The notes beneath the pieces were generated by a model that made no database searches, was not told where the DNA came from, and was given only the letters and a program-made list of their open reading frames with translations. A DNA stretch of 58,733 nucleotides, filler included, from Dugesia japonica (taxonomy: Eukaryota): assembly GCA_001938525.1 (NCBI GenBank). It is 5 parts of 5 records of this genome, joined end to end, with 100 filler letters (N's around TTAATTAATTAA, not from the genome) between each part and the next. Parts side by side here need not be neighbours in the genome. Positions count along the whole stretch, not along the records: positions 38,755 to 49,058 come from MQRL01358573.1; 4 more parts are not named here. One strand, given 5' to 3'. Positions 1 through 58,733 of this stretch are shown here, one piece after another; positions within the stretch are counted from its first letter, which is position 1, and every line of letters begins with the position of its first letter. A program made the translations under genes and the position numbers.

Positions 1-1508
1 ATTCTAATCATCACTAATATTCTTATTATTATGATAATTAATAGACTTATTATTATTTTGATTATTATTTCTATTAAGCTTATTATAACTAATATCAATA
101 CAGTTATTATTACTGTCATAACAATATTATTATCGTCTATATTATTAAGATGAATTCCATGCCCCTTTTAATTGGATTCTAGTATTCGTTATTTACCATC
201 CCTACAATTTAGTTTTTAGGTATTAAGGAGAGAACATGGTGTCTATATCTACATTAATAACGGCGAAAATTCTGGATATTTGTAGTTAACATAAAATTAC
301 TACTAGCTTAAAATTATTTTCCATGAGATCAGTAATAAAATCGATTCGATCATAAAGTTACCGAGAGTGACTGATATCGTTAGCATTTTAACAACTAAGA
401 GATAGATGTGTCCCCCAGCAGTACATAACACTAGCATAATGATTTAGTAGTTAGTGATTGATTCATCAAAATAACTACGCAACCTAGTGAGGAAGTTGAA
501 TCATTTTTTGTTTGTAAAATGTTTAACTTTCAGGCACACATCGTTATTTCCTGATAAAGTGTGTATTGAACATGTCACTACTAAGACACAGGCGACTTTC
601 ATGGTGCTAGGAAACAAATAGCGCCTAAATTTAATTTAAATTAAAATCTATTTATTTCTAAATACTTGTAATTTTTTAACTCCTAGCTAACATGCTGGAA
701 ATANAGTAAAATNAAATGAATATNACCCTATAATAAATAACACCATGTAATAATATTATAATACTATTATATATAGTGGTATATAAATAGCGTAAAATTA
801 AATATTAGACGTTAAAATAAAAAATAAAGTATTATATTACTAATGTATTACCTTATTATTACTATATTTTATAGTAGTGTTATTAAAGTTATTACTACCC
901 AGGTTTATGGCATCATTGCTGTTACTATCTACGCATATTATCGAATAAAAACTATTATGGTAGACTTTACTAAAAGTATGATGTAAAGATAGTAGTGCCG
1001 TTGTGATTATTTCCACTTCTCACCTTAACTAGTAGGTTCAGGCTCTTGAACATCCCATGGGGTTAAAGTGAAGCTCGTTTTTTTCAATTATAATGAGTCA
1101 TTCAATTATAAGTCATGAGTATTACCCTTAATGATCAACGACAACAAATGTGTAAATATTAACTTGGTGAGAGTATGATAATATGAATCTGTTTAGAAAT
1201 CTTATGTCTGAATAACTTCTATTTACCCTTCAGTGAGAGCGCGAACGATCACGCAAACGGCAATTAATAGGACATATCATAGCCCCAAGTCTGGTTATGC
1301 ATCCCGACGAAACAGATTTGATTTGCTTCACTGAGATGTTTCCGTTGACAGTGAACACGGATATGAATGAGAAATGATGATCGTATCGATAATGAAACTT
1401 ATTTAGTTGAAATAAAATATAGGATGGTCTAAAGCTCTAATTTTTAAATTTTTTTGTTTATTAATGTTTATATTAACGTTTATAATTAAATAAAATCTCT
1501 GTTATAGG

Positions 1509-1769
1509 ATGAAAACTATATGGGAAAGAATTGTTGATCGTATCATTTTCAGGCGACACCACAACCCATTTAACCGAGGTGCCGGGATATTAGTAGATCG
1601 CTTGAATTTGCCTCCCGTCGAAGCCGCAGTAGCGCGAATTCAAAATTTTGGAAAGCGGCTTAATTTCCAGCAATGGAATGGGCCAGTGCGCAATCACACA
1701 ACTGCGCTCCAGTATCAACCTCCGGCCCCAACCCCAGTCGTGCAGGCTTTCATCACTAACTTGCTCTGA
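1509..1769 (+). CDS. Orphan cargo ORF of family A element, distant homolog of 43698-44009
   Basis: ATG directly after acceptor-like gttatag; QQWNGPVR vs YQWTGPDR and PAPTPV vs PSPMPV; AATAAA near 1875. Confidence 0.5.
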   Translation: MKTIWERIVDRIIFRRHHNPFNRGAGILVDRLNLPPVEAAVARIQNFGKRLNFQQWNGPVRNHTTALQYQPPAPTPVVQAFITNLL

Positions 1770-2049
1770 GGCGTTAGAGAACCCTATGGCGTGGAGGACG
1801 CCGAAAACGCCGCTCCTACCATGGACCCCACAACTAATCCGCAGTGACTCTTTTGTTTTATATTAGAATGTAGAAATAAATACGTATCTTTGTTTAATAT
1901 TATCTTGCTTCGTTTNCTTCAAGGTTTTAATAAAAGAAAATTTTTAATGTTGTGATAAGTATATTTTGCTGTCCTAAAATTGGGAAGGGTTTCGTGTATT
2001 TCAGTTATGTCGATGATAGCATATTTAGTAAACATTTACTATTTTGTAG

Positions 2050-2420
2050 TGCATTCCTCTCTAAACTGTTCTTCAGCTCCTACCAAGAAGATAAGAGACA
2101 CCAGTGAGGACCAAGAAATAACTTGGGACCTCTATCGCCTGGCAAAGCGACGCTGGGAGGCCGAGATAGCCATCGCCAAAAGTAAGATGAGTCGTTATAA
2201 AAAGAAATGCCTAGCATTCAAGGCAGAAGCTGAAGCTTCACATAAACAGGAAAGAGTCTGGAAGGCTCAATTAGAATCTTTCACTGAGATTATTCGGTCC
2301 TACCAAGACCGAGAGAATAAACTGGTTCAGGATATTCACAAATTGAAAGCTGCAATGCCCCTCGAACCATTAATGGTCGACAAGGGACACAGGTTCCGAA
2401 GGTTTAATATATACCTTTGA
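2050..2420 (+). CDS. Coiled-coil orphan cargo ORF, starts at splice acceptor; homolog of 44180-44538
   Basis: Similarity to the second copy begins exactly at ttttgtag|TGCATTC; ITWDLY, YKKKCLAFK and TEIIRSYQDRE are conserved; AATAAA after the stop. Confidence 0.7.
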
Positions 2421-2526
2421 ATAAATAAATGTTTTAATATTAAATTTTATTTTAATTCTATTCCTTTTGCTAGTTAATTGGCCTGTTTGTTACCTAACTA
2501 ATAAACTAATGTTATATCTTGTTTAG

Positions 2527-2909
2527 TGCCGCGAATTACATTCCCAAACAGTTTAAGAAGATGGTACCGAATTATGCGACGTCTCCTAGTCGAGTGACAG
2601 CTTAAACGAAAAACCGACCGAGCACTTTTGAGGCACCTTAATCAGAGAGATTGATTAATAAAAAGGCTTGACTTGATAGTCAAATGACAGGGCAGCCTGA
2701 TCGAACAAACTAAGGCTCTCACACAAGAGACACAGTTACTGTTGCAGCGCTAAATAGATTTTTTGAAACAATATATTGCAGATCTCTCCCGTCAGCTAAG
2801 AAATCCTACATGGGTCCAATGGGACGATAATGACGACTCGGCGTCGTTCAACTTTTTGACAACCAATCCCGCCCAGTGGTTAAACCCGGGCGCATTGGAT
2901 CTCATATGA
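2527..2909 (+). pseudogene. Helical orphan cargo ORF with in-frame stops; homolog of 44669-45027
   Basis: gtttag|TGCCGCGA start, PRI.FPNSLRR and C-terminal QWL.PGA.D shared with copy 2; internal TGA/TAA stops. Confidence 0.7.
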
Positions 2910-3161
2910 TTTTCATGTAAAATAAATTTTTTTCTTGTTCAACTCATTTTAACCTTTAAAAACAAATTCGTGATAATAGGGAAATTAGTGAACCCAAATC
3001 CAAAGGCCTATGGGCGCGCACCTCCCATTAAGCGAGAGGTCAACCACCATAAGCTGAATACCTAAACTAGGGGCGTTAGGTTAATTCTTGAAAGGTTCCC
3101 CTGAGGGCTGTTTTTCCCCAACCACATTTTTTCTTCCTCCTTCTCAGGTGGAATCCCAACA

Positions 3162-9391: not shown

Positions 9392-9448
<57 letters not shown>

Positions 9449-9548: not shown

Positions 9549-9550
9549 AA

Positions 9551-17900: not shown

Positions 17901-18193
17901 AGAATGGATTTTCTTGAGACCGAAGTGTTATAGCCTTTTGAGTGATGATACAACAATGAAGGCAAAAGTCATAACAATAAAGAACAGTAATTTAAAACAT
18001 CAGTCATACCTTCACTGTTATGAAAATAATTTGCCAGTCTCAATAGATCAATTTAGAATTGGTTTGATAAACCACTAGCTATGTAGTTTAAAAAAACAAA
18101 AAAGTTGCACTGACTAATAACGACGATTAGCGAGTGTGGACTAACAAAAACATATCAGTACCATATGGACATTACACATTAGACAGCATATAA
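14987..18193 (+). pseudogene. Polinton protein-primed DNA polymerase B (stops, frameshifts, internal deletions)
   Basis: GGIRGG, YIDINNLYGWA, KLLNNSLYGK, GDTDSF, GKFKDE, LRPKCYS, C-terminal PYGHY. Confidence 0.95.
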
Positions 18194-23899: not shown

Positions 23900-24720
23900 A
23901 TTTTAATTTCTCATGCAAAAATAAATTTTTGAATTTCCCGCAAAAAATATCAAGACTCCTCTCTTCCTGGTTCAAAAAATCTTAAAAAACAAACCTTCCC
24001 GGTTCAAAAATACATCAATTTTACAAAAATAAAGATTTCAAAAAATTATGACGTCATACACTACAGCCCGAAAAATTTTAAATAAATCTTATAAAATCCG
24101 ATAATTAATTGTCTTTCCATACATGCCACTCTACCTCTCCCGAAAAATTATTTTAACACACTTATACTACTTACAAAAATCAACCAATCAAATTCAAGCC
24201 TTTAAAATAAAAAATCAAAGCACAAAAAATCAACCACATACAAACCTACAGCCTCCCAAAAAATACTCCCGCGATAACTCATATGACTGATCTGATGCGC
24301 TACCACACATCTAGCAAAATCCATCCATCCAAACTCATAAGTCCTTTTAACAATATATAGACCAAAATTTTGGCCAACAACCACCAAATCTTAAAAACTA
24401 CAAAAAATTATTTCCAAGATCTCCAGCTACTCCTCGAGTCCAAAACCATTCTTTCACACACACACACAACAACACACAAACTCAACCTGACCTACTTTTT
24501 AAAAAATAACTTAACAACCCAAACACACACAAATTTTAAAATTTAAAAATACACACACACCACCAGGATTAAAAAAATATGATCCGATCAAAAGTTTTTT
24601 GATCCCAAAAATCTTAGAAAAAAAACTAACCAATAAATCATAGCACAATCTTTATGTGTTTTCGAGCCCCCCCACCCCGGGGGTTCTGTGCTCAATTGGC
24701 CTTATGCGCTACTATCTACT
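23900..24720. mobile_element. Polinton terminal region ending ...GCGCTACTATCTACT
   Basis: Reverse complement AGTAGATAGTAG fits Polinton 5'-AG/AGT-repeat termini; PLA2-integrase coding sequence starts abruptly at 24721. Confidence 0.75.
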
Positions 24721-25756
24721 TACTGTAATCCAAAATCTGGAGAAGAACCAATTAATAGAGTTGATGTAGCAGATTTAAAACATGATTTATCTTATAAATC
24801 AGAAGATTTAGGAGATAGACATTTGGCTGATGTAAGTTTAATTCATGATTTCAACAAAATTGAAAACTCAACTATTTCTAAAAAGATGCAAAGAGGTTTA
24901 GTAAAATTAGCAATGAAAGGTAAAATTATTTTAGGTGCTGGTGTACGCTCAAATAATGAAACATTATCAAATGAATTTCATAAAGATTATAGAAAACCTA
25001 AAAAATATTTAAAAGTAAAAATAAAAGAAAAAGATAATTCTTGGGGTTGTGATATTATTGATATGGTTGAAAAATCTATTGATTAAGAAACATTTAGATA
25101 TATTTTGGTTTGTATTGATTTATATTCCAGATTTGGTTTTTGTATTCCAATGATAAATAAAAATCAAGAATCATTAAGAGAAGAGAAAATATATTTGAAG
25201 AAAAAAATAGAATTCCAAATTATATTTGGTTTGACAGAGTCAGCAATAAGATCAAAATATTTTGATAAATTTCTTAAAGAAAATGATATTAATTTATACC
25301 ATACAGAAAATGAGGGTAAATTAGTTTTTGCTGAAAGATTTATTAGAACTTTAAAAACTAAAAGGCGGAAATATTTTACATTTGTTGAAAATCAAAAAAG
25401 GAATAAAATCTTGTTAGATAAAATTGTAGATGATTATAATAATACAATTCGTTCTAGTATAAAAATAACTCCAAAGGATGCTTGTAAAAATCCAGATAAA
25501 ATAAAAGAAATAATCGAAGATCATAATCATGACAATGATAATATAATATTTTAACAAAAATTTAAAATTGGAGATAGAGTTAGAATCTTTAAATATAAAT
25601 ACAAATTTGAAAAAGGATTTACAGCTAAATGGAAAAATGAAATATTTGTAGTAACAAAAGTGTATAATACAAAACCTTTTACTTATGGAATTACTGATTT
25701 AGAAAATGTAAAGATTTTGGGTAGATTTTAATGAACTTCAGAAAACTGTTTTATAA
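24721..25756 (+). pseudogene. PLA2-like domain fused to retroviral-type (rve) integrase
   Basis: PINRVD..KHDLSY..RHLAD (PLA2-like); WGCDI, CIDLYSRF, IWFDRES, AERFIRTLK, YNNT, KFKIGDRVRI. Confidence 0.9.
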
Positions 25757-26287
25757 ATTTTAAATTAATAAATTAAAATGAGTGAGAATTTCTTTGATGG
25801 GACCCGTTGAGATTTTATTTTAAAAAGTATTTTAAAAGAGGACTCAAAAAATACTCTTAAAGAAGAAATTAAACAAGAATTAAAAGAACCTCTTAAAGAG
25901 AAATTAAAAGAAGAATTTAAACAAAAATTTAAAGCAAGAATTTAAAAAAGAATCAGAAGAAAATAAATATTTGAAGAAATCACTTGCAGCTGTAAATTCA
26001 CCAGAATTATTTTGGAAGTGGATAATTATAAATAAGCCTAATGATAAAAAATATGAAACCATGACATCTGAAGAAATAGATGAAGAAGTTGTAGTATTAA
26101 TCAAATATTTAAAAAATTTCAATTTTACTAATACGGATCCATATAGTAAAGTATATTAAATTTAATAGTAAATAAAATAAATGATGAACGTATGGATAGT
26201 TATATAGATCAAAGTGAAATAAAAGAATTCTTTGATAAAAAAATAACTTCTGATTATGAAAATAAATTTTAATTTTTATTAGATAAA

Positions 26288-26560
26288 ATGTCTGAGTTAA
26301 TTAGTAAAAAGATGATTACCAAAACGATGATACTTAGTTTGTCCATATTCTTTTTTATTAATCGGAAAACAAACCTAGCAGTAATTGATTTGTTTACAAA
26401 CGAGGTATTTATAGAAAGTAAATCATTATTAACAAGTTCACTTGGAAAAATATTTAATACTTATAATAGAATTCCAAAAAATTTATGGGTTTTAAGAGGA
26501 AGTGTATTTTTGAAATCTTATTGTCAGGAAAATAATATTAATTTATTTTTTATTAAATAA
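26288..26560 (+). CDS. Miniature integrase-core paralog
   Basis: AVIDLFT..KIF..NRIPKNLW..FLKSYCQENNINLF parallels CIDLYS..IFEEKNRIPNYIW..FLKENDINLY of the upstream integrase. Confidence 0.6.
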   Translation: MSELISKKMITKTMILSLSIFFFINRKTNLAVIDLFTNEVFIESKSLLTSSLGKIFNTYNRIPKNLWVLRGSVFLKSYCQENNINLFFIK

Positions 26561-26562
26561 AA

Positions 26563-27330
26563 ATGTCTAAGTTGATTTGGAATAAAAACAAATACATATT
26601 TAATAATAAAATCTTTCCATATAATTTTAGATTATTAATAATTGGTTCTTCAGGATCAGGTAAAAATGTTTTGTTAATGAAAATGTTATTAACTCCAGAG
26701 TTTTTAGATTATGAAACTTTAATAATTTATTCTACAACTAAAAAATCAATTCGAATTACAATTACTCTATCAAGGTTTTGAAAACGGATTAACAAAAAAA
26801 GGTATTATTTTTATTTTTGAACATCAAAACATAGTTCCTGATTCTTTAATTACTCCTTTGCAAGTTATCCAATGATTTATAGAAAAAAGGTATTTAACCA
26901 ATAAACCAAGATTAATAAACGTAGTTTTAAGTAATAAACTAAATGAAATTATTCCTTGTGAAAATTATCTAAACAAAAAAAGAATTTAATAATTTTTGAT
27001 AATGTTGTAAATGTCAAAGATCAAGAAATACAAGTTATTTTACTAGAGGAAGACATGTAAATTGTAATGTGAATTATATTTCTCAAACTTATTTTAATTT
27101 AGATAAAAACTCTATTAGAAATAATTCCAATTGTTTCATCTTTTTCAACTTAAATAAAACAAATAAAGATAATGTTTATTATGATTTATTTAGTAATATA
27201 TTTTCTAGTAAAACGGAATATGATTATAATGTAAATTTACATTGAAAAACTAAGTATAATTATTACTATTTAGATAGAGAAGCTGGTGTATTAATAGAAG
27301 ACTTATTCGAAGAGGAGGTGAAAAGAGGAT
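26563..27330 (+). pseudogene. Polinton packaging ATPase (FtsK-HerA/A32-like)
   Basis: Walker A IIGSSGSGK, Walker B LIIFDN, FTRGRH, ISQTYF, SIRNN. Confidence 0.9.
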
Positions 27331-27431
27331 GATAGAGGTAAAGAGGTGAAAGAGGAATTGAAAGAGGAGAAAGAGGATTTAAATTTGTATACTAAACATA
27401 AATAAGAATATTTTTATTATTTTTTAAGAAA

Positions 27432-27912
27432 ATGTCTTCAGTATCAGAACAAGAATTAATGTAAATCGGTAAATATAAATGGTTAAAACTATTGGATTGC
27501 TACTAAAGTTAAAGAAAAAGTAAAAAAAATTAGGTAAATAACATGGAGGTGGTTTTGCTTTCCTTGCTGCAATACCAGCTATAATTTCTGGTTTAGCATC
27601 AATAGCTGGAAATGCGACTGGAATAACATCAACTGTTAGTAATTCTAGAGATGCAATTAAAAAATAAAAAGAAACTGAATTAGTTGAATTATAGAAAAAG
27701 GAAAAATTATTTCAAATAAAAAAATTGGAAAAAGAAGGTTTAGAAAATAAAACTGGAAGTGGATTATATTTAAAACCTTATCAAGGAAGCGCAATACATA
27801 AATATTTAAAAAACAGTTTATCAAACCTAGAGTTGAAGTTGATTACTAAAAACTTTAAAAAAAGGAGTACAAATAAAAACTAGTGGCGGTGGTTTATATT
27901 TAAAACCTTATA
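27432..27912 (+). pseudogene. Core/protein VII-like precursor
   Basis: HGGGFAFLAAIPAIISG and repeated GSGLYLKPY / GGGLYLKPY protease-site-like motifs. Confidence 0.65.
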
Positions 27913-27915
27913 AAA

Positions 27916-28690
27916 ATGGATAATAAGGAAATGTTGGCAAGAATAAAACTTTTAAAAGAATTAATTAAAGTACAAGATAATTTTAATAATTGATTAACTG
28001 GTAATCTAATTGAATCCCAAACTTTAACAGATACTTTAACCTTTGAACAACAACTTACTTTTAAAGCTATTGAAAAATTAAACACAAAACCTATACACCC
28101 TTTTGAAAATAGAATACCATTCTTTCCTAAAATTAATTTAAATGTTGATAATTTATCTAAAACAATTATACCCATATTTGAAATAGAAGTTATTAATAAT
28201 AAAAACTTTCAAAATATAATTTACCCACACAAAGAAATATATTTATTTGAAGAAGATGGAAAGAAATACTTTTTTTATCTAATGAAGAACTAATATCTTA
28301 TTCTGAAAAAGTAATGAATTTAATTTTAGGAAACGGAAGTAATGATCCTGAAGCAAAATATATTTATTTAAATAAATTAAATATTACATTTCCTCCTAAT
28401 TTTAAATATTATAAAGTTTTAACTGGGAAAAAACTACTAAAATATTTAAGCTTAAAAAAGAAACTCCTGTTAAAAAAGAAATCCAAGAGAATTTTATGAA
28501 AGGTGAAGGTTTAAATTTTATTTCAAACTCAGATCAGCTATCTTTATTTGAAAGATTAGCATTATTAATTTAGCAGTGAAAGCAGGTCATAATAATTTAC
28601 ACAAAGAAATTAAATCTATTTATAAAGAATTATTAAACCAAGAATTAATTACCAAAGAAAAATATAAAGTTTATAAAAGTAAAAATTTTA
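27916..28690 (+). pseudogene. Conserved Polinton/adintovirus protein with GEG and AGHN motifs
   Basis: KGEGLNF..LFERLALL..KAGHNNLHKEIKSIYKEL. Confidence 0.55.
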
Positions 28691-28700
28691 GTTAAATAAA

Positions 28701-29366
28701 ATGTCTCATCAATTTTTAGTTGTTGGTAAAGAATCTAATTTAGAAGTTGATTTAAGATTTACAATTTAATTAGATTCTGACAATGAAATGGGTTTATTAT
28801 ATTTTAGTTGTTATAATATAATTTTAAATGTTACTAGTAAAAATAATACTTTTATTTTAAATACAGAACAAAAATACATTGAGCCAGGTGCTTATGAAAT
28901 AAAAGAAATATCTAATAAATTAAAAGATCATGGAATAGAAGTTACACCAGATCTTTCAACAACAAAATGTAATTTAAGAACAAAACATACAATAAAATTT
29001 AATGTTAAATCTTTTTTTCACACAATCTTAGGTTTTTCACCTCAAAATAATTTAACAGGAAAATATTATTCAGAAAATAAAGTTGATATTTCAAACATTA
29101 ATGTGATAAATATAACTTGTAATTTAGTTAAAGGATATTATATTAACAACTTTCCAATGAATTTATTATCTTCTTTTCCTGTAAATACTGTTGGTTTTGG
29201 TTATAAAATTATAGAAAGACCTCCAATTCCTATTTATTCAAGATTAAACTCTAAATGTATTGATTCTATAAAATTTAATATTATAGATGAAAATAATAAT
29301 CCAATTGATTTTAATGGTGAAACTATTTCTTTATTAGTTCATATAAGAAAATGTATACAATCTTAG
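28701..29366 (+). pseudogene. Polinton minor capsid (penton), one 5' frameshift
   Basis: IEPGAYEIKEI, ILGF, VDI..INITCNLV, GYKIIERP, IDFNGETISLLVHIRK. Confidence 0.85.
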
Positions 29367-32400: not shown

Positions 32401-34849
32401 CTATTAATTTAATCTAACTTAATTATGCTCAGCAAAATTTGTACTATTAAGAAAAATTATGTGTAATTAATAAGTGTTGTAATTTAAATTTGTATGCTTT
32501 TATTATTGTCGACAAATTAATTTTGTATATTTTATAAATTTTTGAAAAATTTAAATTTTACACGTGTTACCAATAGCAATATTTTAAGTTTTAATTTCTT
32601 ATCAATGCAATTTAATTATTATTTTTCAGTATTTAGTTTTTCAATGGAAATAGTTTGTAAAAATTTAGCAGAAATATTAAACATGCATTATAATTGGGAT
32701 CTATTTATGTCATCGTTGACAGAGATCTCAAGCAATGAGAAATTATTGAATCGGTATAAGTTAGAAAAGAAGTTCCAAGATTGGCTCCATACATTAAAAA
32801 AATGAAACTCCTTGATAGTTGAGTTGTCATGAAGAAAGGTGAATGTAAAGATAATCTCAGTTACAATATAAAATAACTAGAAAATATGAGATTTTTAATG
32901 AAAAATCTCGTAATGTTCTTCAATTTTCACCCGCCATTTGCAGCAATCAAATTTTATAAAGATGAGAAGAAAATAATTAAAAACAGATTGAACTTGGACT
33001 GTAGATATCAAACAAACATCAAAGTACAAGCTCTATCTATTTCGTTGGGAAACAACGCCAATGTAAAATAGAAAGAAATAAAATAATGATAATTATTTTT
33101 ATTTAATAAAAAATTAATAATTTTAGATTAGATCATTTCTTTCAAGAGAAAAGCTTATGGATTCACCAAGTTTTATTTTTATGAAAACATTTTTTATGCT
33201 ATTTTCTTTTATTTGATGTTAATTTCAATATCTAATTATGTTATTAGAAAAATACTATTAAAAGAAATTGGTTTTTTTAATTATTTTAATCATATTTAAA
33301 AAAAGAAGAATAATATTACTTCGATTATTTGGTAGACTTAATTGAATTTCACCTACAGAATCATTTTTATCAATGCTTTCAATCATTTGTTCTATTACTG
33401 AATCTAAATTTTCTGCAACTGTATAACCTTTATTAAAAAAAACCGTTAGTCATCAACGCCAATATTTAGCTAGACACAGATCTGAAAAATGGTAAATAAT
33501 TCAAAGTCAACTGTTGTCAATTTAATACATGATAATTCATAAATCTATAAATTAAATCACTACAGAAAATCATGACTTATTATCATTGAAAAATCATTAC
33601 TAAAAATTCATGAAGTTAAATCATTAAAGAAAAACATTAATGTTTATATAAACTTTATTACAATCTAATTTAAATGGAAATAAATCCTTACTTATTATTA
33701 AAGTTCATAATAATGATCATAATTCGTAATAAGTTACCATATTCCCAATAAATTTAATAATATAATTAAAAATTCATAACGTATACAATTTTTTATCTGA
33801 ACATCAATTTAATAAATTAAAAGAAATATTTAATTTTAAAAATTGTTAACTTAAAAAAAATCATTACAAAAATTATTAAAATTAAAGATATTCATTACCG
33901 TATAATTTAAATAAAAAATATCCTTACATGGTTTATCAAATTTTATAATTAAATTGATCTAAAAAAGCTTTCATAATAAATACTCATATAATATATATAA
34001 TAACTGATTTTAGAACAAAACACAGATAATAATTCAGTGTCTAAACCACTGTATTATTATCAAATAAAATTTAATGAACCAGAGAGTAAACAAATAATAA
34101 TCGAAGCGAATTTATATTTGTTCAAAAACTAACTAAAATATGACCTTTTAATTTAACTGCTAATAATTAGCTTTGTAAATTTCAATATTGCTAGTTAGCC
34201 GTACTCATAATGTAGCTTTAAAATTTTTGTCTAAAAACCACTGATTTGCAATCAGTATTTATACCAAATTTGTGTTTACAATTAATTTAACAGATTTCTT
34301 GATTAAACAAAACGTTTAGAAGTAATTTTAATTTCTATTTACCTAATTTAGAAATTGGAACTAAAATAAATAATGTTAAATAAATAAAAATTTTAGTTAC
34401 TATTTTTAATAATTGATTTTAAGAAAAGAAAACTATTTAATAACCTTGAGTAATGAATTGTAAAATTAAAACAATTTGAAATTTTAATAAACTAAATAAA
34501 AATTTCATGAATGAATTTATAAACTAAATAAATTAATGTAAGCTTAGCTTACAACCTTAACACATAATATATTTCCCCAAATAATCTAAACTAAATTAAT
34601 AGTATATCAAGTTAAATAAAAAACTTTACTTGATATTATTAAAATGACGGAATAACGATGAAATAATATGAAAATATTTCATTTCAGCCATATTTAATTA
34701 ATATGTGAAAACCAAATAATTTAATAATAAATAATTGCTTGACGTATTTCAATTAATATTATTTAACACAAATCAATTTTAAATAACATTAATTATAATT
34801 TTAAAATGCATTAATTCTAGCTGATCAATTTTAAGATAATAAATTTTAA

Positions 34850-35090
34850 ATTCTATGAGTTTAAGATGTTAAATTCTAATTTATATGAATTTTAAGCTGA
34901 TAAAATTTATTCATAATAAATTTAAACTGATAAATTTTGATTCATTTTGATTTAAAACTGATAAATTTTAATTTTTATTACTTTTAAAATGTTAAATTTT
35001 TATTCTTATAAATTTTAAGCTGCTAAAGTTTGATTCTTATTACATTTTAACTGATAAATTCTTATCTTAAAATATTATGAATTTTAAGGT
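34850..35090. repeat. Degenerate ~29-30-bp tandem array (TTTAAGCTGATAAATTT)
   Basis: Direct inspection. Confidence 0.65.
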
Positions 35091-36129: not shown

Positions 36130-37214
36130 CAATCAAAATCACTAAATAATAAATATTTCTCAATGAATTCATGTTTCATTAATTGATCTATTGTTGCTCT
36201 CTCTTTTGGATCTTCTTTCACACAACAATCAATAAAATTGACTAAATCTGGTGGTTTGTTTGTTCTATCATATTTAATTGTGTGAAACGTTTTGATTTCT
36301 GCCATGTCGTCACATTCAAATAATCCAGGAAATAGTTGAGCACCTTTAATTAATTAATAAAAATAAATCATAGTCAGTATAATATTCACCTGTGATAATA
36401 TCTATCATAATAACACCGAGTGACCACACATCAATACTCGCTTCATGAGGTTTACTATCCAATATTTCTGGTGCAACAAATGTCAATATACCATCTCTTT
36501 GTTTGAATTTATTGGGTTTATCATCATTAAGATGATCCAAATATTTATTCATATTGAAACTTGGTAATTTCACATCATATGTTAATATTTCATTAGTTGA
36601 CAAGAACATTCTCATTAGTATCTTAATTATTAGAAATTATAATTTCTCATACATGATGAAACCTTTGTTGAATTCTCTAACCCGATATAGATCCACTAAC
36701 AATCCATATAAATACCAAATATTTGTATAAATCTTGGGTGAGAATTTTGTTGTTTAAAACATTTGGAAATCTTCCTTCAAAATCATCAATAAATCGTTAT
36801 CATGTGCAGTTTCCTTTAAGCCTTGGCTATATTGGCTTATCAATATTGGCCTATCAAAGATTTTACTTTTTGCTTTGTATACATTAATAGGACCAAAACT
36901 CTTTATTGTTGAAATAACTTCAATTTTATCCAAACTAATTTTGTTTATAATTTATATTTAATCATAATAAATTCACATCGTGTGAAATAACAAAATTCCA
37001 CCAATGATTTACTATCAGTATTATATTCATAAATGGATTTATCATTTTGTAATAATTTCTTATTGAGAAATACAGCATAATGATTGGTTGCCATTTTATG
37101 TTGTATTTTCTGAATAGATTTCTTTATAATGTCTGATACANNTTCAAATTTTGAGANTTCAATTGATATTGTTTCTTTATCACTGAAAATTGATTTCATC
37201 GTAATATTTTGCAT
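36130..37214 (-). pseudogene. Ubiquitin-like domain + degenerate protein kinase, with short introns
   Basis: GILTFVAPEIL, IDVWSLGVI, CCVKKDPKERATIDQLMKHEF; N-terminal Ubl (FLNKKLLQNDKSIYEY); stops in the N-lobe. Confidence 0.75.
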
Positions 37215-38847: not shown

Positions 38848-40380
38848 GAAGTATTGAAATGGTTATAGATATTACAAGCCCGACTGTAATAATATGTCCC
38901 ATAATAAAAGTAATCTATATCTAGGTTATTATGAAAGGCATTACTTTTGGATTAAAAGATTATAGAAATCTCGGTGAGAAATCTTCACATACAGGGAGTG
39001 GTTCATAATTATGTGACAGATGTTTTAATTATTCAAGAACAATAGATGCTTTCAAAACGCATAAAGAGTTTTGTGAGTCAATTGATAATAAATCTAGATT
39101 AATTTTTCCGGTTGATATAAAAAATCAGTTAAATGAGGCTATAAAAAATATAATCAATGTCAACATCCAGTAAAAAGAAGAGACTTACTCGAAAAATGCA
39201 CAAAACTAAAACACAAATATGAAAGAATGTCTAATCTAAAGTTTTCACAATTTTATTATAAGTTAAAACAACCGTTTGTGATTTATGCCGTTATCGAGTC
39301 GTATCTGGCAAAAACACCAAGAGTTATTACTACTGTTGCAAGAATAGTAAATACCAATATTCCATATACAATTACGCTCTATTTCAAATCTTTATATCAA
39401 GAATCAGCGCAAGATTATACTAAGGTTTTCTATGGACCTAATTGTATGGAAGAATTTATTAAATTTGTGATCGGAATAGAAATCGGAGTGTATAACACTC
39501 TTGAATAATTTTTAAAGAAACCTATATAGCAAAACTAACAGATGATGATTTACTTAATTATTCTAATTCTTCCGATTGTTGGATTTGTGAAAAACCGTTG
39601 TGTGGTAATAAGGTTTTAGACCATGACCACTTTAATGGAAAATATAGAGGAGCAGCACATAAAAGCTGTAACTTAAATCTAAGTTTGAAGAATTTATTTT
39701 TACCTATATACTTTCATAATGGAAGTGGATATCATTTTCATTTATTTATAAAAGAATTAGCAAAACAAACTAGATTAATAGGACGGGTAGATGAAATAAA
39801 TATAATACCTTAAACAGAAGAGAATTACATGTTAATTTCATATTGGAAAGTGAGATTTTTAGATAGTTATCGAATGTTGCAAAACTCAATAGAGGCAATA
39901 TCAAAATCATTAACAAAAGATGAAAGTAAAATATTATATAATTTTTGTAAAGAATCAACTAGATTAACTCAAGATATTAAAAGATTAACTTTCGAAAATA
40001 CAACGAATGATATTATCGGAAATCAAATAAATGGAGAAATAACTAATAATGTAGGTGAAGGATTAAATATAGAATCAGTAATTCTTGAATCAGTTTCACC
40101 TGATGCATTATTTGACTTAATCAAGAAAAAAGGAGTTTATTCATACGAGTGGATCGATAATCCATCAAAATATTATGAAACACATTATAAAATAAATGGT
40201 GGATTTCATCTTTTATCAATTAAATCGTTTTATTCAAGATTATATAATTATTTGCCGATTCTTGAGTATTTAATATTAAGTCAGATGATTTATATAAAGA
40301 AATAAGAGAAAAGAATTTTAAAGAAATATTTAACCTCAGCAATTATAAAATAAATAGCGCTGTTGCAAGAGAATTACAAT
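38848..40380 (+). pseudogene. Polinton pPolB N-terminal half with endonuclease VII-like insertion
   Basis: CWICEKP..LDHDHFNGKYRGAAHKSCN, FHNGSGY, RFLDSYR, KKGVYSYEWID. Confidence 0.9.
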
Positions 40381-40715
40381 TGTTGGGGTTCCACCTAAGT
40401 TTATGGTAAAATAAGATGGCTGGGAAAAAGTCAGCCCTTCAAGGGACCCTTTCAAGAACCCGGAGTTTCAAAACCCGGAGTGCTTGTACTCAAGTCAGCT
40501 TTGTCTAAATACATAGAGAAAGGGTAAGTTAAAAAAATATAAAATAATAATATATAAAAATATACATAAAATAATAATCATCTAATAAATATATATGTAT
40601 CTCCGTAAAATATGGAAGCTGTGAAAAAAACATAGTATATAACTGTGAGAATTAAAATTAATGTAAATAAATAATATTGCATAACCAGAAACAATTACGC
40701 ATATAAATGTAGATA

Positions 40716-41912
40716 ATGGAATTTGGTCTGGACTTATCGATAAACGAGGCGAGACTTATAATGAATGATCCAGATATTAAGTTACATTGTATGAGCCAAG
40801 GTCGGGAGAAAATAAAACAAATTTCAATAGTCCAAAACATAATGCACTACCGTAACAGTTTGGGAGCACCAGAAAATTTCATACGCCGAAGAGTATGATA
40901 TAGTCAAACGAAGGTTTTCGACGAAAAGTATCCAGATGAAAATACAAGAGCAAAATCTTTACTCGAGTTACCTAAATATTTGCATGGACTTATTCAGGCT
41001 ATAGCCAGATTTGGGTTTTATTACACCGGTACCCAAGAACGGCCAGATAAATTAAAATGTATATATTGCCAAGGAAACCTGTGCAAATGGAGCATGAACA
41101 ATAAACCCAACCGAGATCATAAGAAATGGTTTCCTACCTGTCCTTTTCTGTTAAATCTAGATGTAAATAATAAAACAAAACTCGTCAAATGAAAGAAATC
41201 AAAAATTGAAAAAATAACTCCGGATCCAAAAAAGTTATATTGTAAAATTGTAAAAAATCTAGTGGAAGTAACACTACCTGATGATCTTGAATGGAATGTC
41301 GAAGCTAGAGAAAAAGCTTTTCAAGAGGCACCAGACCTAATAGAAGAGGCCATGGAAGGATTATATATCATCCAACGGACAAATAACCAAGTTATAAAAT
41401 GCACAACATGCAAAAGAGAAACGTTGTTATTAAAGGGGGTAGAGAAATTGCCAAAGGATATATTCCACCACAAAACATGTTCAAGATTGAGCCAAAGTAA
41501 TGAGGAAGAATTACCAGTAACCACCTGTAGAGTCAAATGGAATATGTCCAATAACAGAATGGAAATGGCGATCGAATAACAGCCAACAGACTAACCAATA
41601 TACTTAAGTTAAAGAGGGAAAACATCAACCAACTGATAAAACAAACGGTCGCAGGGAAAGGGACAGAACTAATCACACCTTATGAATTATATCAACAATC
41701 ATTCAGAAAAGAGAATCAACAAGTAAAGTATGAGCAAGAATGGGTATTAATGGATAATAATTGTGTAATATGCCCGGAAGAAACAATCGAAGTCATATTT
41801 CTTTCATGNNNNNNNNNNNNNNNNNNNNNNNAATTCCGCGATAAATTTAAATGAATGCCCTATGTGCCGGAAAGTAATCGAACGTAGGGTATTGGGAATA
41901 AAATTTCATTGA
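40716..41912 (+). pseudogene. Inhibitor of apoptosis (BIR, degenerate BIR, RING), intronless, with stops
   Basis: ARFGFYYTG..DKLKCIYC..W..DHKKWFPTCPFL; second KCTTC..HHKTC; RING CVIC..IFLSC[gap]..ECPMCRKVI; ORFs 40716, 40980 and 41262 share one frame. Confidence 0.9.
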
Positions 41913-42013
41913 TCAAATAAACGTAAAATACGTAAATACTGTATATTAGATATATATATTTGTCAAACACTTTATTTAAACTAAATTAATCACTCCCTCT
42001 AATTTTAGAAAAA

Positions 42014-42961
42014 ATGAATACCGAAAATTTAATAAATCATCTGATAAACGAAATTCAAATCTTGCAAATTCAAACCCAAACTCTCTCAACAATACCCGAA
42101 GTTACAAAATGGAAACTAGAGTAAAAAATAAACGCCCTCTCGAATCTGCAGCTGCAAAATTACAACAATGAATTAAAGGGACAGATAGAGAAAGCTCGCC
42201 ATGAGCTAGAAACCAAAAAACGATCTTGCAAATCCCACCAAAAATACATAAAAAGCAACATAGACACAAATAAAGCTAAAATAAATGCGATAAAACAAGC
42301 ACGAAACTGAAAGATCAAATATGAGCAAGTCGAACCCACAAGAAAAAAACTCAAAAATCAGTTACGCATTGAACAAGAAAACACCCAAATTCTCAGAATG
42401 AAGTTATTTAACACACAATTCAAGAAAACCCGCCTGGCAAGAGAAAATCAACTACTGACCAGCCTGGCCAATCAAGACGGTGTCAGAGCTGGCATAGATA
42501 AACTGTCATTGGAATTTGAATGTATAATTCAAGAGTATCAGAAGCAGAACGAATACAACGAGCAGTACAAATCCGCACTAGAAAAAGAAATCATCGAGTT
42601 GAGTAATCTTTGTCTAGAAAAGGAAACAAACATCAACAAGAAATAACAGCATCTAATCAAACAATTCGCAATAATCAAAAAGCTGCAGCAATTGCATGTA
42701 GTTTGTCAACCTATTTCTCACCCAGTTGTTACTTGGAATGTCATACCAGTTCTACCTAGTACAAGAGGCCTACTCATTCTAAACCCACCAAAATCATCAC
42801 TAAACCCAGCAGCCCCAGCATGGAAATTAATACCACCGATAATCTCGCCAATACCAAGACAATCAACACCTCTAATAATCCAGGAACCCAAAAATTATAG
42901 ACACAATCTCTCAATCCCAACGTGGTCAATAAGCAAAACCTCGGTAATCAACCAAACCTGA
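42014..42961 (+). pseudogene. Long coiled-coil protein with Pro-rich tail
   Basis: ATG just after ttttag acceptor; Q/E/K heptads; several stops. Confidence 0.6.
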
Positions 42962-43697
42962 CCAAATAGACGCCAATGAGAGTTCTAAAACTCTGCAAAA
43001 AAATCTAAAAATTATGGGCACCACCAATCAAAGCAAGACAGTTGGAATTAAAAATAACCAGCCAATAACAACTATGTCGAGTTGTAAATGAACAGCTATT
43101 AACCCCCCCCCCCAAAAATTTAGACGAAAACACTTTTTTGATATTCACAAAATTTTGAGTGGAGATTGCAACCATTACAAATACATAATCTTAAAGCAAA
43201 GAAACTCTCGACAATTAACCAGTGTAAGCCGGTAAACTCTAATTGTTGATTTCAATTGTTACAAACAAATTGTAGAAACAAATCTCGCTCACCAAGTGGA
43301 AAAAATTCTTATTATAACCCAGTGGAATTAATTGAAGATACGAATAACCGAATTTGCTCAGCATTCATCCTCTTCGCAGAAAATTTTTTATCTATTAGTA
43401 AGTGAAGGGTTCATATTTGTTTATTAAAAAATATTTGTTGAAAATTATATAAATGATTAATAAATACTTAGTGTTAATTTCCATTATTATTTCTCAAACA
43501 TTACATACAGTATTTAACATTAGGAGTATTTTGATTCATAGATAGAAAAGCGATGGCCTCATAAACGGACACATTAGTCCCGATCAACCAGTGTCGATTT
43601 TATATCTTGATGTAACCACAAAGTTTGACATCGTGGACTTACGATATTTCAAAACTCATACAATCGAGACGCCGGCGTACTAATATAAAGAGCAAAT

Positions 43698-44009
43698 TTG
43701 TCAGCTAGAGTTACACATGAGGAAAGACTGATGGACGCCACTGACAGACAAGCATATTATCAGTGGACCGGCCCAGATCGTAGTCGCGTCATCCTTTCGG
43801 CGCGCGTGATATCTACTAATTACGCCAATGGAATGCCAATCTACGAACGAGTATGGATAGAGAACACTACACCGTCTCCAATGCCCGTCACGACACTGGT
43901 AAGATTAGCGGGGTTGATTAACGATAACCTTTGGAGAGCTCGGAATGCGTCAAACAATAACAATGATGAAAACTCAGATCCCTATCCAGCCGACGAACCT
44001 TTTATTTAA
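43698..44009 (+). CDS. Orphan cargo ORF (3' part), distant homolog of 1509-1769
   Basis: YQWTGPDR motif, same slot in the element, AATAAA near 44025. Confidence 0.5.
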   Translation: MSARVTHEERLMDATDRQAYYQWTGPDRSRVILSARVISTNYANGMPIYERVWIENTTPSPMPVTTLVRLAGLINDNLWRARNASNNNNDENSDPYPADEPFI

Positions 44010-44179
44010 AATTGGTGTTATGTGAAATAAATATAGATAATGAAATCTTCTTTAATTTAGTTAACTTTTGTTCTCTACCAAAATAACTCAAACTTTCACG
44101 TAACTTTATTTAACAAATAATTTTAAAATCGGTTATATACAATTGTCTTCTTGTTCTAACTTATAATCTACAATTTTAG

Positions 44180-44538
44180 TGCATTCTTCATCAAATCGAG
44201 CTGTAGTGCCCACCAAGAAAATAAGGGAATCCAGTGATGAGACCAAGATCACATGGGACCTCTATAAGCTGGCGAAAAAGCGATAGGATGCCGATACTGC
44301 TTCGACTGAAACCAAAGTCCGCAGGTACAAAAAGAAATGCCTAGCATTTAAAACAGAGGCCGAGGCGTCTCATGACTAGAAGAGGGTATGGAAAACCCAA
44401 TTAGAATCGCTTACGGAGATCATCCGGTCCTACCAAGACCGAGAAAGTAAACTGGTTGGTGATATTTTAAAATTACGAAGGGTTATGCCCCTTTCACCAC
44501 TTATGGTGGACAAAGGAGTACAAACTTCCCGACCATGA
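44180..44538 (+). pseudogene. Coiled-coil cargo ORF, homolog of 2050-2420, two TAG stops
   Basis: ttttag|TGCATTC start; codon-level conservation with copy 1. Confidence 0.75.
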
Positions 44539-44668
44539 ACTTCGCTCATTAATTTTAATCGTATAATAAACAACTTCATTTGTCTGGGGTTTTAGAATAA
44601 TTCTTTAGTTTATGTTTAATTACTGTCTTAAATAACCTGTAACGAATAATTAATGTACTTTTATTTAG

Positions 44669-45027
44669 TGCCACGTATAATTTTCCCTAACAGCTTACGG
44701 CGTTGTCACAGAATAATGCGGAGACTACTTCTTGAACGACACCTCAAACGCCAGTTCGAATGTGCATTGATCAAACACCTTGCACAACGAAATAAGCTTA
44801 TAAAAATGCTAGATCTCATAGTTAAGAAACAGGGAGATATAGCAGAACAAACGAAACAACTACTTCAAAATAAAATCGATTTTTTGAAAAGATATATTAG
44901 ATTTATCCTGCCAGCACGGAAACGCGTCATGGTTACAATGGAACGACAATGACGATGAAGCGGCATTTAATTTTTTAGATGACGATCCCCCCAGTGGTTA
45001 GACCCGGGTGCTATGGATTTCATGTAA
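44669..45027 (+). pseudogene. Cargo ORF, homolog of 2527-2909, frameshifted near the end
   Basis: atttag|TGCCACG start; PRIIFPNSLRR..QWLDPGAMDFM*. Confidence 0.75.
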
Positions 45028-45701
45028 TATGATACAAAATATAATTTAGTTAACGCTTTATTAATTGATTTTGAAAGTGATAGTATAGGGAAAATAAAAA
45101 ACCCGAACTAAAGGTGTATGAGTGTGAACCTCCAGTAAAGGTCGAAGGTCAGCCGCTCTACACTGATTATCTAATTTAGGGACATTAGATTTAATTTCTT
45201 GGAGGGGTACCCCTGATGGCCGTTTTTCCCCGGCCAGTATTTTTGTTTATCGTCAGCTCAGGTGGGACCTCAACAATATTATTATTTATTTACCTACTTA
45301 CCTCAAAACTCAAGCAACGAAAGGATTACACCTGAATCACATGCATAAGTCATTGTTAATAAATTTCTTTCACGTAAAAAAATTATCAATTTTTTAATGA
45401 GTGCGCTACGCACTGAAAATTGCTTGCCCAACAGTGGATTGAAATAATTAATTAATTTTTTGCAATCAATAACAGTCAATAAATTAAATTTTGTTAAATG
45501 AAAAAAAAAATTGGTACTAAAATAACAAATAAGTATCATATATAAACTTTAGACACTCTGATTAACCTTTATGATTTATTTTTAAATATAACTTCGAAAA
45601 TAAAATTATAAAGACTAAATAATAAAAACAAAATTGAATTATTTACTACTTTAATAAAATGATTTACTAATGGATTTTAATATTAATCTATAGAATTATA
45701 T

Positions 45702-47090: not shown

Positions 47091-47507
47091 ATTTTAATAC
47101 ATAAACGAAAAGATACACACAAATCATTAAAATGGATTATAATGAATTTTTATCTTTGAAATTTTAAAGTCTTTATGAATGCTTATTTATATTTAATTTA
47201 GATTCAATTTAAATAATTTTTGAGAAAGTATTTTCATTAGGTTTTAATTTTTTTTAAATAATAAACAACAACTTTTAAATGACATCAATTTTTAAATTAT
47301 TTATCTAAAAAATTGTGTATCAAAATTGTGTATTGAAAATAATTTTGAATAACTGACATTTTCATTTTTTGTGTTTAAATGTTATTAAATATTAATACTT
47401 AATATTCGTGTAGTTTTAAATTAGTTACTTTTTAAAATTAAATTTAAGAAATTCAAATTTTCTGTAAATTAATTAATAAATTTTTGAATATTGTGAAGCT
47501 TAGTAAC

Positions 47508-48333
47508 ATGAAACCAGTTACAAATAACTTTAAAACTCATGATAATACAAATGCAATTCATCGAACTCCTTTTCCTCTTGCACCTAAGTCTTACGTTTCG
47601 AAAGATACCAACGAAGCAGTAGCTAACGATTCTTTTCCAGAGCCACCTCCACCACCTATTCAATCATCAGAATATATGAGTTTTGATGAACCTTGTTTCA
47701 AAGTTGACCATGTCATACGATCACTAGAATCTCAAGGTGTTCATGGATTATATCCTCAAGTAATATTTGTATTTCTGTTAATCTGTAAATGATTTTTTTC
47801 AGATTTATGACCACAAAAAAGAATTTAAATTATACGTGTCAATAGTTGCTAATTTCTTAGAACTTGTACAAATATTAAACCAAGAACCAGGTTCCTCGAA
47901 AAGAGTGGAAAAACCTGAGAATATTGCCCACATTGTTATTAAAATTTATAATTTACTCAATGAATATCGACCACATCAAGCAAGAGATACATTAAGAGAT
48001 ATTTGGAAAATTCAAGTAAATTATTCAGCATCTAATTTATTTTTCATTTTTTATTTATTTCAGGCAACTGATAAATGTTATGTGCTACCCATGATTTCTA
48101 TTACGAAAAATAATTTGAATTCAAAAAACGACGATGAACTTATAGATCGTCGTGAAATAAGCTATGATGATTTAACAAATCAATTGGAAATAAAAACTAT
48201 TCAATTAGTTGCCTCATGTTGTATGTTAATTGGATCCAACATTTTTAAAAATGAAGAGTTAATGCAGAAAAATAATTTATTAAAGCTACTCTATGGTTGT
48301 TTTTTGTTTTTAATATTAATATGTGAAAAATAA
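47508..48333 (+). CDS. MED7: Mediator subunit 7; introns 47760-47802 and probably 48016-48063
   Basis: PPPPI, IRSLESQG..LYP, DHKKE, SIVANFLELV, LLNEYRPHQARDTL. Confidence 0.9.
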
Positions 48334-52597: not shown

Positions 52598-53361
52598 CAG
52601 TACGCACAAAAAATCCAATCACTATCCAAAAAAAATAAATTACTTGAAACTATTGTTATAGTTTCAATCAATTTATTACTAAACCATTTATTAGATATCA
52701 ATATGTCGTTTATTATCCATCATTGTCAATCATAGCTTGGCATCTGCGTGGCATACTTCCAACTAAGTTAGTGAGGAAATCTGTTTGTAAATTTTCCATC
52801 TAACTTCTAAAACTTTACATAATTTATTTTCATTTGTTGGATGTATGTCTGTTAATGGTTTTTCAAAGAAAATCCATAACTTTTAATAGGATTTAAATCT
52901 GGACTTCGAGATTTAGATATCTTTTGATTTGTTTCACAGAAATGGTACTAGCACTTACTGTCTCAGATATAATATTTTGATCATCAGTATTTGTAGTTTT
53001 TCTTTGTCTTCCACTACCAATTTTACGTTCGTAATTCCCACGTGATTTGTAATCTTTAAGAAAAGTAGCGACTGTCTATTGAGGTTTCTCCATTTTCTTT
53101 ACCATTTCTCTCCGTAATCTGAATATGCTATAATCTGTCCTTTTTCAAAATTAGTTAGCTTTGCCATTGATATAATCTTAATGCACAATTTTAACTATTT
53201 AAATTTCCACAAAACAATACAAAACAAATACTTATTCAATTTATTTGATTTAATTGATTTCACAGCAAAATGTGTATGAAATGTTATATGATCGGATTTT
53301 TATTAAATTGTTTCAAGTAATTTGTCTTATTTGGATAGTGGTCCGATTTTTGTGTGTATTG
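52598..53361 (-). mobile_element. Internally deleted Tc1-like transposon with TIRs and TA flanks
   Basis: TA|CAGTACGCACAAAAAATCCAATCACTATCC.. and ..GGATAGTGGTCCGATTTTTGTGTGTATTG|TA; MAKLTNFEKGQII, GSGRQRKTT, SPDLNPI. Confidence 0.9.
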
Positions 53362-53904
53362 TATATAAGTCTACTTAAAGTTTACATAAGACCAACATCC
53401 CTATTTTATGATTCATTTCATTAACTTCTATTCTATATTTACAATTTGGCTTTTTATTCTCTTTTCATGTTTTCGATATTTGCTAACAGTAGATTAAAAG
53501 TGACGTTGATAGACCGATTGACATATATCAGAACTTAAATTGCAGATATTGTATTATAATATAATATGAAGGTAATATATTACAATAATATANNNNNNNN
53601 NNNNNNNNNNNNNTATATTATAATATATTATAAGTAGATATATAGTGACGCACTGAATCAACACACAAACACCTCCCACGTGTGTAAAAATTATTATGTA
53701 TTTTTTTCCTATGTAAATAGATGGAGACACGAATTTGTGTGCATTACGTAACTGTTGCTCGTATTTTTGAAAAGTTTACAGAATTATCGGGTTTTTATAC
53801 AGCGAAACACATTTGTGTGTATTACATATGNNNNNNNNNNNNNNNNNNNNNNNNNNNNNNNNNNNNNNNNNNNNNNNNNNTAATAGTTAAGCTAATTTTT
53901 TCAA

Positions 53905-54030
53905 TTTTCTGGACGATTTGATAAGGAAGTTCTTCAATAAGGTTGATTTTTGGGTGATTTTGTAAGAAATTTCCTCTGTAAGGGCAAACTTAGTTGATTA
54001 TTTACTCACAAAGGTCAATTTTCTAGAATT
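53905..54030. repeat. Dispersed repeat with inverted copy at about 58600-58722
   Basis: TGGACGATTTGATAAGGAA..GTTGATTATTTACTCACAAAGGTCAATTTT shared. Confidence 0.85.
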
Positions 54031-54089
54031 TAGGGCATTATTCACCTATAAATCATACTTAGTATAATTTTCACAATCATAATGTTTAA

Positions 54090-54275
54090 GTCATAGTACA
54101 TAATTCTCATTATCAACAAGTCATAACATACACAATACTCGCTATCATCAAGTATTAGCATACATAATACTCGCTATCAACAACTCTTAACGTACACAAT
54201 ACTCGTTATCATCAAGTATTAGCATACATAATACTTTCTATCATCAAGTATTAACATACACAATACCTGTTATCA
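54090..54275. repeat. ~29-bp minisatellite (ACAATACTCGCTATCATCAAGTATTAGCAT)
   Basis: About six units seen. Confidence 0.85.
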
Positions 54276-54651
54276 TTATTTACCTATTGATTATTCAGTT
54301 ATTATTTTAATTTGTTCATCGCTTATAGTCAACTNNNNNNNNNNNNNNNNNATATATGCTTACAACTAATAACTGGTTAAATATTCACATATTTTCTCGT
54401 TAATATAGAAAATTTCTTTGAAAATATACCTTCTAATGTGCTTTATTATCCAATTAATCGTCCCCTTGGAACATTTATTTTATTTAATCATTAAAACTTC
54501 TTACGAATTATTCATAAACTTATTATTATTCTTTTAAATTAATTAATTAATTAATTAAATCCTCAAATAGAAATCCTCAAAGTAAAATAGTAAATGAAAA
54601 AATTTATGATTCACCATTAGTGAAGAGAAAAGACATGCACATAGAGAAGAA

Positions 54652-58060: not shown

Positions 58061-58733
58061 TGATTTAAATGAAGAATATTTACAAGTAATGATTTTATTT
58101 TGATATTTCACAATAGTATAATTATAACATTTAGTAATTTCAATCAAGATAGTAATTAATCGAGTCACCCATTCATCAGATTTTCATTTTGATTTGTTTC
58201 ATTACGATTAGAGAAGAAATATTTCAAAAATTCTCGAAAAATTACATGTTGTTCCTTATTTCCTCAGCACTCAACATGATTTGGCGATTTTTAACTAGGT
58301 CAGTCATGATCAGCGGAAAATTCTCTATCGAATAGACTACTATATAATTAAATTCAAGAACAAAATATTATTCGAAAGAAATTTTTTTAGGAGAAATGAT
58401 CCCGTGGTCATTCTGAATCGATTTATGTAAAAATCTCGTCCAAAAAAATTTTTCAAATTTGAATTGTTTGCCCAAATTCTCATAAATATTTCAAGTATTT
58501 TTAAAAAATTTGAATTATTTAAATAAATTCGTCTATTTCCCACGAATTTCCGTAAAAAATTCAACCCAAACAGACCAACCCGAAGAAATTATTGATCAAA
58601 ATCATAGAAAAATTGACCTTTGTGAGTAAATAATCAACCAAATTGCCCTTACCGAAAACATTTCTTGCAAAATCACCCAAAAATAAACCTTCTCGAAGAA
58701 TTTCCTTATCAAATCGTCCAAAAATTTTAAAAA

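Follow-up and report, generated by a model that had tools for sequence, protein, structure and literature searches.

A 58,733-nucleotide stretch of Dugesia japonica DNA (GenBank assembly GCA_001938525.1), consisting of parts of five genome records joined end to end and hereafter called the window, contains a 4.9 kb unit (40381-45275) that begins with TGTTG, ends with CAACA, and carries an inhibitor of apoptosis (IAP) gene followed by four open reading frames (ORFs A to D). Judged by its sequence, this unit is a real copy, decayed and now dead, of a gene-packed mobile unit. On balance, it probably corresponds to the solo long terminal repeat (LTR) of a giant, Burro-like Ty3/gypsy retroelement, an identification that we hold with modest confidence. 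The occurrence of a stand-alone IAP gene in a five-gene array led by acceptor-like sites, between long inverted ends, is unusual; the idea of an IAP-bearing transposon has already been published for Burro1. A search of titles and abstract openings found no description of such a unit, and the primary Burro papers may already describe LTR genes. All comparisons were drawn from the two copies within the window and from public collections.

Shared inverted ends delimit the unit

The original prediction for this DNA described imperfect inverted ends of ~80 bp starting with TGTTG, and alignment bears this out over ~80 nt at three ends in the window, namely both ends of the unit and the right end of a diverged sister copy (Table 1). 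The two ends of the unit align with a score of 41; among 1787 random pairs of the same spacing, two scored as high (and these two may overlap the real ends). Pairwise identities are 71-76%: 58/82 for left against right, 60/79 for left against the copy end at 3161, and 59/80 for right against the copy. The three ends have in common a plan of outer block, spacer and inner block with a sharp inner border. Likeness between left and right ceases at about nucleotide 80 (58/130 further inward), and the two right ends are alike for 120 nt more (85/129). Because the same repeat is present at three ends, it is a trait of the family. Past the terminal CAACA, the unit and the copy are unrelated (30/63 identical; shuffled mean 0.48).

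Terminal hairpins gave z values of -1.0, -2.3 and 0.35 with no fold in common, and an Rfam scan returned 0 matches. A search with the end pattern likewise gave 0 matches among viral and metagenome contigs; its 3 matches in the window are there by construction.

Only the right part of the sister copy is recognizable, and its segment 2034-3161 matches 44166-45275 of the unit at 66%. The earlier description of a diverged, colinear copy ending at 3161 thus holds for C, D and the right end, and weakly for B, but not for the IAP, ORF A or the left end, none of which was found in positions 200-1480 of the window (best z 3.4 in 18 frame pairs). At the place of ORF A, the copy holds a micro-gene that we term X. 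Given this substitution and the missing IAP, either the 5′ cargo differs between copies or the copy is truncated there.

A row of three short ORFs with AT-rich spacers and an AG before each (AG/TG for the middle one; here and below, a slash marks the splice boundary) lies on the minus strand at 12350-13580. Its middle ORF weakly resembles ORF C (z 4.1-4.2; 0/300 shuffles). No terminal repeat was found for this row, which is possibly a more distant, decayed family.

Five decayed genes, including an IAP

The five genes (IAP, A, B, C and D) are all on the plus strand and all are broken. Seven premature stops fall in the 815 codons of the IAP, A, C and D, in addition to frameshifts, and a simple simulation fits ~6% decay. 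The IAP gene has stops at 40896 and 41190, and frame changes near 41560 and within a gap of Ns. Its first BIR domain displays the CxxC, H and C ligands, matched 83 PDB sequences, and was assigned to Atlas BIR clusters (0.93). When aligned with NAIP, the acidic stretch preceding the histidine is unconserved, which reflects decay or real loss. Of the BIR-BIR-RING architecture initially proposed, one BIR stands. The second is a motif without a Pfam match at E<=10 (z 0.4 against the first, with 1594/5000 shuffles equally good), and the RING is a weak match, half N, in which a frame change and a run of 23 Ns (41809-41831) interrupt the sequence. Word searches for relatives of the IAP found none, which rules out only close relatives with identical words, and a single-sequence fold was uninformative (predicted local distance difference test score 32.5). 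The ancestor could plausibly have promoted survival of its host cell; the IAP of the present copy is broken.

ORF A has a charged, helical-type N-terminal half and a Pro-rich C-terminal half. Its stops are at 42122, 42308 and 42644, and its open frame reaches 42961, with the extension to ~43405 inferred across frameshifts. ORF B is weakly related to the copy ORF at 1509-1847 (E 0.001 in the window). Between unit and copy, ORF C has a nonsynonymous divergence (dN) of 0.22 and a synonymous divergence (dS) of 2.3 (111 codons), and ORF D has a dN of 0.25 with saturated dS (62 codons, from the first 65 codons of D). Third positions account for 60/102 of the differences in C and 40/68 in D. This pattern marks C and D as real coding sequences that were formerly under purifying selection between the two copies.

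The protein encoded by the copy's ORF C is predicted to form one 84-residue helix, which matched no viral structure at E<=0.001. A test for hydrophobic periodicity on A, C and D gave no heptad signal, and the long coiled-coil gene described at first was a by-eye reading. A profile of B, C and D had 0 matches among 1.84 billion representative proteins and none in metagenome contigs. A word search with ORF C found no homologue among 5.8 billion proteins (75-240 aa only); viral contigs held no relative of it, and Atlas gave low recognition with hypothetical clusters only. Eight ORFs of the element or copy had no match in PHROGs. The claim of at least three orphan ORFs on one strand survives as to the strand and as to B, C and D; ORF A was scanned against Pfam and PHROGs only.

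A six-frame Pfam scan of the unit, with X at stops, detected no transposase, reverse transcriptase (RT) or capsid, as had been predicted, and no integrase; it returned only the BIR and a sub-threshold DUF496 match.

Gene layout and candidate splicing signals

Each of the five genes has a splice-acceptor-like AG at its start and a stop codon followed by AATAAA at its end, an arrangement absent from the original prediction. Conservation of ORF C begins at TAG/TG (35/64 identical upstream, shuffled 0.51; 42/60 downstream, shuffled 0.45), and D behaves likewise. The word YAG/TG is present at all four C and D starts and also at micro-gene X, and occurs once in 1015 nt of spacer. In the IAP, A and both B genes, YAG lies 1-7 nt 5′ of the ATG (4/4; background 133/674). 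AATAAA is found <=66 nt from 9/9 gene ends, compared to 0.33 of AT-rich windows. These nine ends include only six independent genes, with the end of A inferred over frameshifts and that of X taken in the motif frame. For this count the end of copy B was taken as 1862; its stop is at 1845-1847 and the true offset is 28.

The layout suggests that one leader exon was spliced to alternative last exons, and that C, D and X would receive the A of their ATG from this leader. The only near-perfect donor-like sequence 5′ of the genes (Table 1) does not match this expectation, as an exon that used it, at 40524, would end in G. No A/GT[AG]A donor is present in 40381-40712, and no conserved one in the right end.

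Two other sources of a leader were tried and rejected. Trans-splicing onto a leader ending in AUG is found in flatworms; for C, the resulting frame runs into a stop within 9 codons in the unit and in the copy alike. A coding first exon within the left end would meet two stops over 40 codons.

Acceptors of the spliceosomal type and poly(A) signals would also be expected if the unit consisted of host exons, or of clustered host genes, with inverted ends that arose by chance, and IAPs are host genes. Against this explanation, the likeness of the copies stops at the terminal CAACA, three ends have one 80-bp repeat, and both copies are decayed. We regard it as largely refuted and very improbable.

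A probable solo LTR of a giant gypsy element

The termini of the unit, TGTTG...CAACA, have the TG...CA form of LTRs. In the interpretation that we favor, a parent element would have provided RT and integrase, and recombination between its two LTRs would have left the unit as a solo LTR. Each gene would be expressed as a separately spliced, polyadenylated last exon, and one upstream leader exon would give the first base of the start codons of C, D and X. This leader may reside in the lost internal region, or may end at the donor-like site at 40524 if the genes are antisense to the genomic RNA. The IAP is predicted to block apoptosis in a cell with an active element.

A solo LTR would explain four things together: the TG...CA ends, the lack of an enzyme, the missing leader and the selection that acted on the cargo genes. 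If the parent was autonomous and virus-like, selection would act on it in its entirety, cargo genes included. Furthermore, C and D require a preceding exon with a final A, and there is no A/GT[AG]A site from the left end to the first acceptor and no conserved one in the right end, which fits a donor outside the unit.

Burro elements are >30 kb in length, of which up to 25 kb is internal, and contain BIR, BCL2-like and env-like regions as well as accessory ORFs (PMC6431247). Moreover, Burro1 reportedly protects stem cells with a RING- and BIR-containing ‘B-IAP’ (Poulet et al. 2026, cited in PMC13465017). The planarian giant gypsy-like Burro/GYPSM1 elements resemble the unit in their mobility, their BIR/RING anti-apoptotic cargo and their accessory ORFs, and the sizes given imply multi-kb LTRs. 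The Burro description consulted mentions neither a row of five genes, each led by an acceptor and polyadenylated separately, nor inverted ends of 80 bp, and the unit has no linked gag-pol.

A start codon built by splicing is described for the env gene of errantiviruses (bioRxiv 2023.08.03.551782). In the springer subclade, the leader gives AU to one target ORF; the exons of the unit, in contrast, would begin with TG, need only an A, and belong to several ORFs. Accessory genes that lie inside the LTRs of complex retroviruses and are expressed by splicing include MMTV sag, HIV nef and the accessory genes of foamy viruses. Those LTRs have a single gene with a single poly(A) site, whereas the unit has five genes with a signal each.

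Several observations weigh against a solo LTR. The BIR of Burro is described within a polyprotein and not in an LTR, whereas the IAP of the unit stands alone as a gene bounded by TG...CA ends. No PBS-like (primer-binding-site-like) TGG follows either right end, the ends lack a clear purine tract in front of them, and a scan of 71 flanking ORFs found no RT, gag or gypsy integrase. The lack of a PBS, a polypurine tract and RT or gag nearby is expected of solo copies, but is not proof. The inverted ends, 78-80 bp long and kept at three ends, are atypically long for an LTR, in which inverted attachment sites are usually short. A near-perfect donor is present inside the unit, where a self-contained cassette needs one. 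In addition, a sense genomic RNA would be cut short by the five poly(A) signals, which would lie in U3, unless their use were tied to splicing.

LTR elements have target-site duplications (TSDs) of 4-6 bp. The check for such a duplication, which the original prediction proposed for young copies, found none readable at the unit's flanks: CAAT/ATAT agrees at 2/4 positions, ACAAT/ATATT at 3/5 and the 6-bp pair at 0/6 (chance 0.39, 0.20 and 1.0, respectively), in a copy that is ~6% decayed. The flank of the sister copy is GTTT.

Cut-and-paste and viral alternatives

The unit could instead be an enzyme-less cut-and-paste element of the Ginger kind, or of another TGT-ended DDE group, that was moved in trans via its 80-bp repeats. 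Ginger elements have TGTNR ends, repeats of 40-270 bp and 4-bp TSDs, and TGTNR is also given for Gypsy LTRs (PMC2836005). The likeness to Ginger1 and Ginger2/Tdd extends to the TGTNR ends, the repeat length and a size within 2.6-7 kb (PMC2836005), with the 78-80 bp repeats inside both the Ginger1 (40-270) and the Ginger2 (50-180 bp) ranges. The prediction that TGT...ACA ends indicate a Ginger-type transposon fits on these counts, but the same ends suit a Gypsy LTR, and a solo LTR had not been considered.

In this alternative, the left end would hold the promoter, a leader would extend to 40524, and five alternative last exons would follow, with exchangeable 5′ cargo including the IAP. The sharp inner border and the block plan at three ends, the near-perfect donor 5′ of the first acceptor, and the absence of a PBS or retroelement genes adjoining either end all favor it. 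However, the unit has no transposase, and the six-frame Pfam scan found no gypsy-integrase-like DDE transposase of the Ginger1/Ginger2 type. Ginger OTU, Ulp1 and PHD domains are fused to the transposase, whereas the genes of the unit are separate (PMC2836005). Neither the CAAT and ATAT flanks nor GTTT at the copy corresponds to the CCGG or CCGT/ACGG 4-bp duplication of Ginger1. Compared with the Ginger2/Tdd target RTATAY (4-5 bp TSD), the flanks of the unit are AT-rich without exact duplication. An exon ending at 40523 would end in G and give C and D no ATG in this copy, and lasting purifying selection on several trans-acting genes seems hard to square with a passive element. We consider a Ginger-like origin possible but doubtful.

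A related proposal, which we advance equally tentatively, is that the family consists of enzyme-less, self-expressing cassettes. The 80-bp ends would let an integrase-type enzyme move the unit alone, a single leader would be joined by splicing to any of the five last exons and would complete some start codons, the 5′ slots would swap cargo (a stand-alone IAP in this copy), and stem-cell survival would aid spread. Such a unit would be a satellite without a retro stage or a self-mobile LTR.

It is improbable that a larger element of the DNA-virus kind, whether Polinton-related or another integrating virus, gave rise to the unit as a segment-like or internally deleted piece. The window is rich in Polinton-type remnants, and the left end of the unit adjoins the broken end of one that encodes DNA polymerase B (polB). 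DNA viruses typically have IAPs and compact rows of genes with acceptors and poly(A) signals. However, neither Pfam nor PHROGs found the Polinton/Maverick genes (polB, integrase, ATPase, capsid) between the ends, the flanks of the sister copy have no polB similarity, and neither ORF C nor the end pattern has a viral-contig relative. The right flank of the unit does not match the polB remnants of the window, and the polB region is not detectably continued there. The earlier suggestion of a Polinton satellite is left unsupported, with the polB remnant lying outside the left end. The broader idea of a non-autonomous, gene-rich selfish element stands as far as a mobile, enzyme-less unit is concerned, on the shared ends, the similarity that stops at the end, and the selection on C and D.

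We assign the unit to neither Burro nor Ginger.

Neighborhood of the unit

The DNA of the window is rich in A and T, with GC at 18-39% per kb, and its content is eukaryotic: it includes genes for Med7 and a TopBP1-like protein, along with a GIY-YIG ORF and Polinton-type remnants. We take the polB-type remnants to be Polintons partly from characteristic motifs. Decayed remnants of this type (polB pieces, and an integrase with a weak rve match, E 0.011) lie at 8975-11193, 15100-18078, 24637-29366 and 39137-40380. An unbroken, 885-codon multi-BRCT ORF with a TopBP1 BRCT0 match (5457-8114, plus strand) is a large exon or a retrocopy, and a Med7 gene (47448-48333, plus strand) is split in two by a short intron-like gap. 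The GIY-YIG ORF (20088-20780, plus strand) probably represents the 3′ portion of a Penelope-like element. Fragments of a protein kinase are present at 36132-36636 (minus strand).

An inverted pair of 136 nt with 87% identity (53897-54031 and 58599-58733), ~4.8 kb apart and reaching the end of the window, possibly bounds a second unit with terminal inverted repeats. A sequence resembling a miniature inverted-repeat transposable element (52609-53351) has 46-nt inverted arms of 85% identity spaced by 651 nt. Tandem arrays at 22891-23528, 34845-35068 and 54096-54307 have periods of ~42, 31 and 32 nt, respectively.

Table 1. Positions of the unit's features, its sister copy and its left flank in the window
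Feature	Position	Strand	Remarks
Left flank, broken Polinton-type polB region with endonuclease VII-like zinc domain	39137..40380	+	Outside element; z 10.3 to polB remnant near 16 kb
Left terminal inverted repeat	40381..40458	+	78 nt; TGTTG start; outer 19 nt and inner block conserved, A-rich middle variable
Tandem GC-rich unit of 15-16 nt, x2	40451..40481	+	Inner edge of left repeat; putative promoter element
Splice-donor-like site AAGG/GTAAGT	40520..40529	+	0.02 expected per 250 nt
IAP pseudogene	40713..41912	+	Acceptor-like AG 3 nt 5′ of ATG 40716; AATAAA 41916
IAP BIR	~40944-41156	+	All four zinc ligands; Pfam PF00653, E 9e-17
IAP BIR-like motif	~41298-41480	+	Motif level, statistically unsupported
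IAP RING, partly N	~41765-41885	+	CxxC...CxxC visible; E 0.017
ORF A pseudogene	42009..43405	+	AG 5 nt 5′ of ATG 42014; AATAAA 43459
ORF B pseudogene, frameshifted	43547..44009	+	AG 7 nt 5′ of ATG 43553; AATAAA 44026
ORF C	44180..44538	+	TAG/TG start, without own ATG; stops 44284, 44377; AATAAA 44565
ORF D	44669..45027	+	TAG/TG start, without own ATG; basic Leu-rich N-part, acidic/aromatic tail; frameshifts near 44890-44990
Subterminal block, conserved, non-coding	45076..45195	+	85/125 identical to copy; shuffled mean 0.47
Right terminal inverted repeat	45196..45275	-	80 nt; CAACA end on plus strand
Sister copy, right part only	1234..3161	+	Genes X, B, C, D and right terminal repeat
Copy micro-gene X	1234-1380	+	CAG/TG at 1233/1234; one frameshift; HI-x6-MHPDETDLIC-x3-MFPL
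Copy B	1509-1847	+	
Copy C	2050-2420	+	Open frame
Copy D	2527-2909	+	Four stops
Copy right terminal repeat	3085-3161	+	

Implications for the element family and its host

If the unit is a DNA element, then selection on several genes of an enzyme-less unit would represent a new kind of satellite. Should it instead be an LTR, as we favor, then the end of a retroelement would have been made into a five-gene array with swappable cargo, in which the IAP is separate from a Burro-type polyprotein. Solo LTRs scattered through the genome could in that case each act as an anti-apoptosis cassette, in a host whose stem cells reportedly rely on a transposon IAP.

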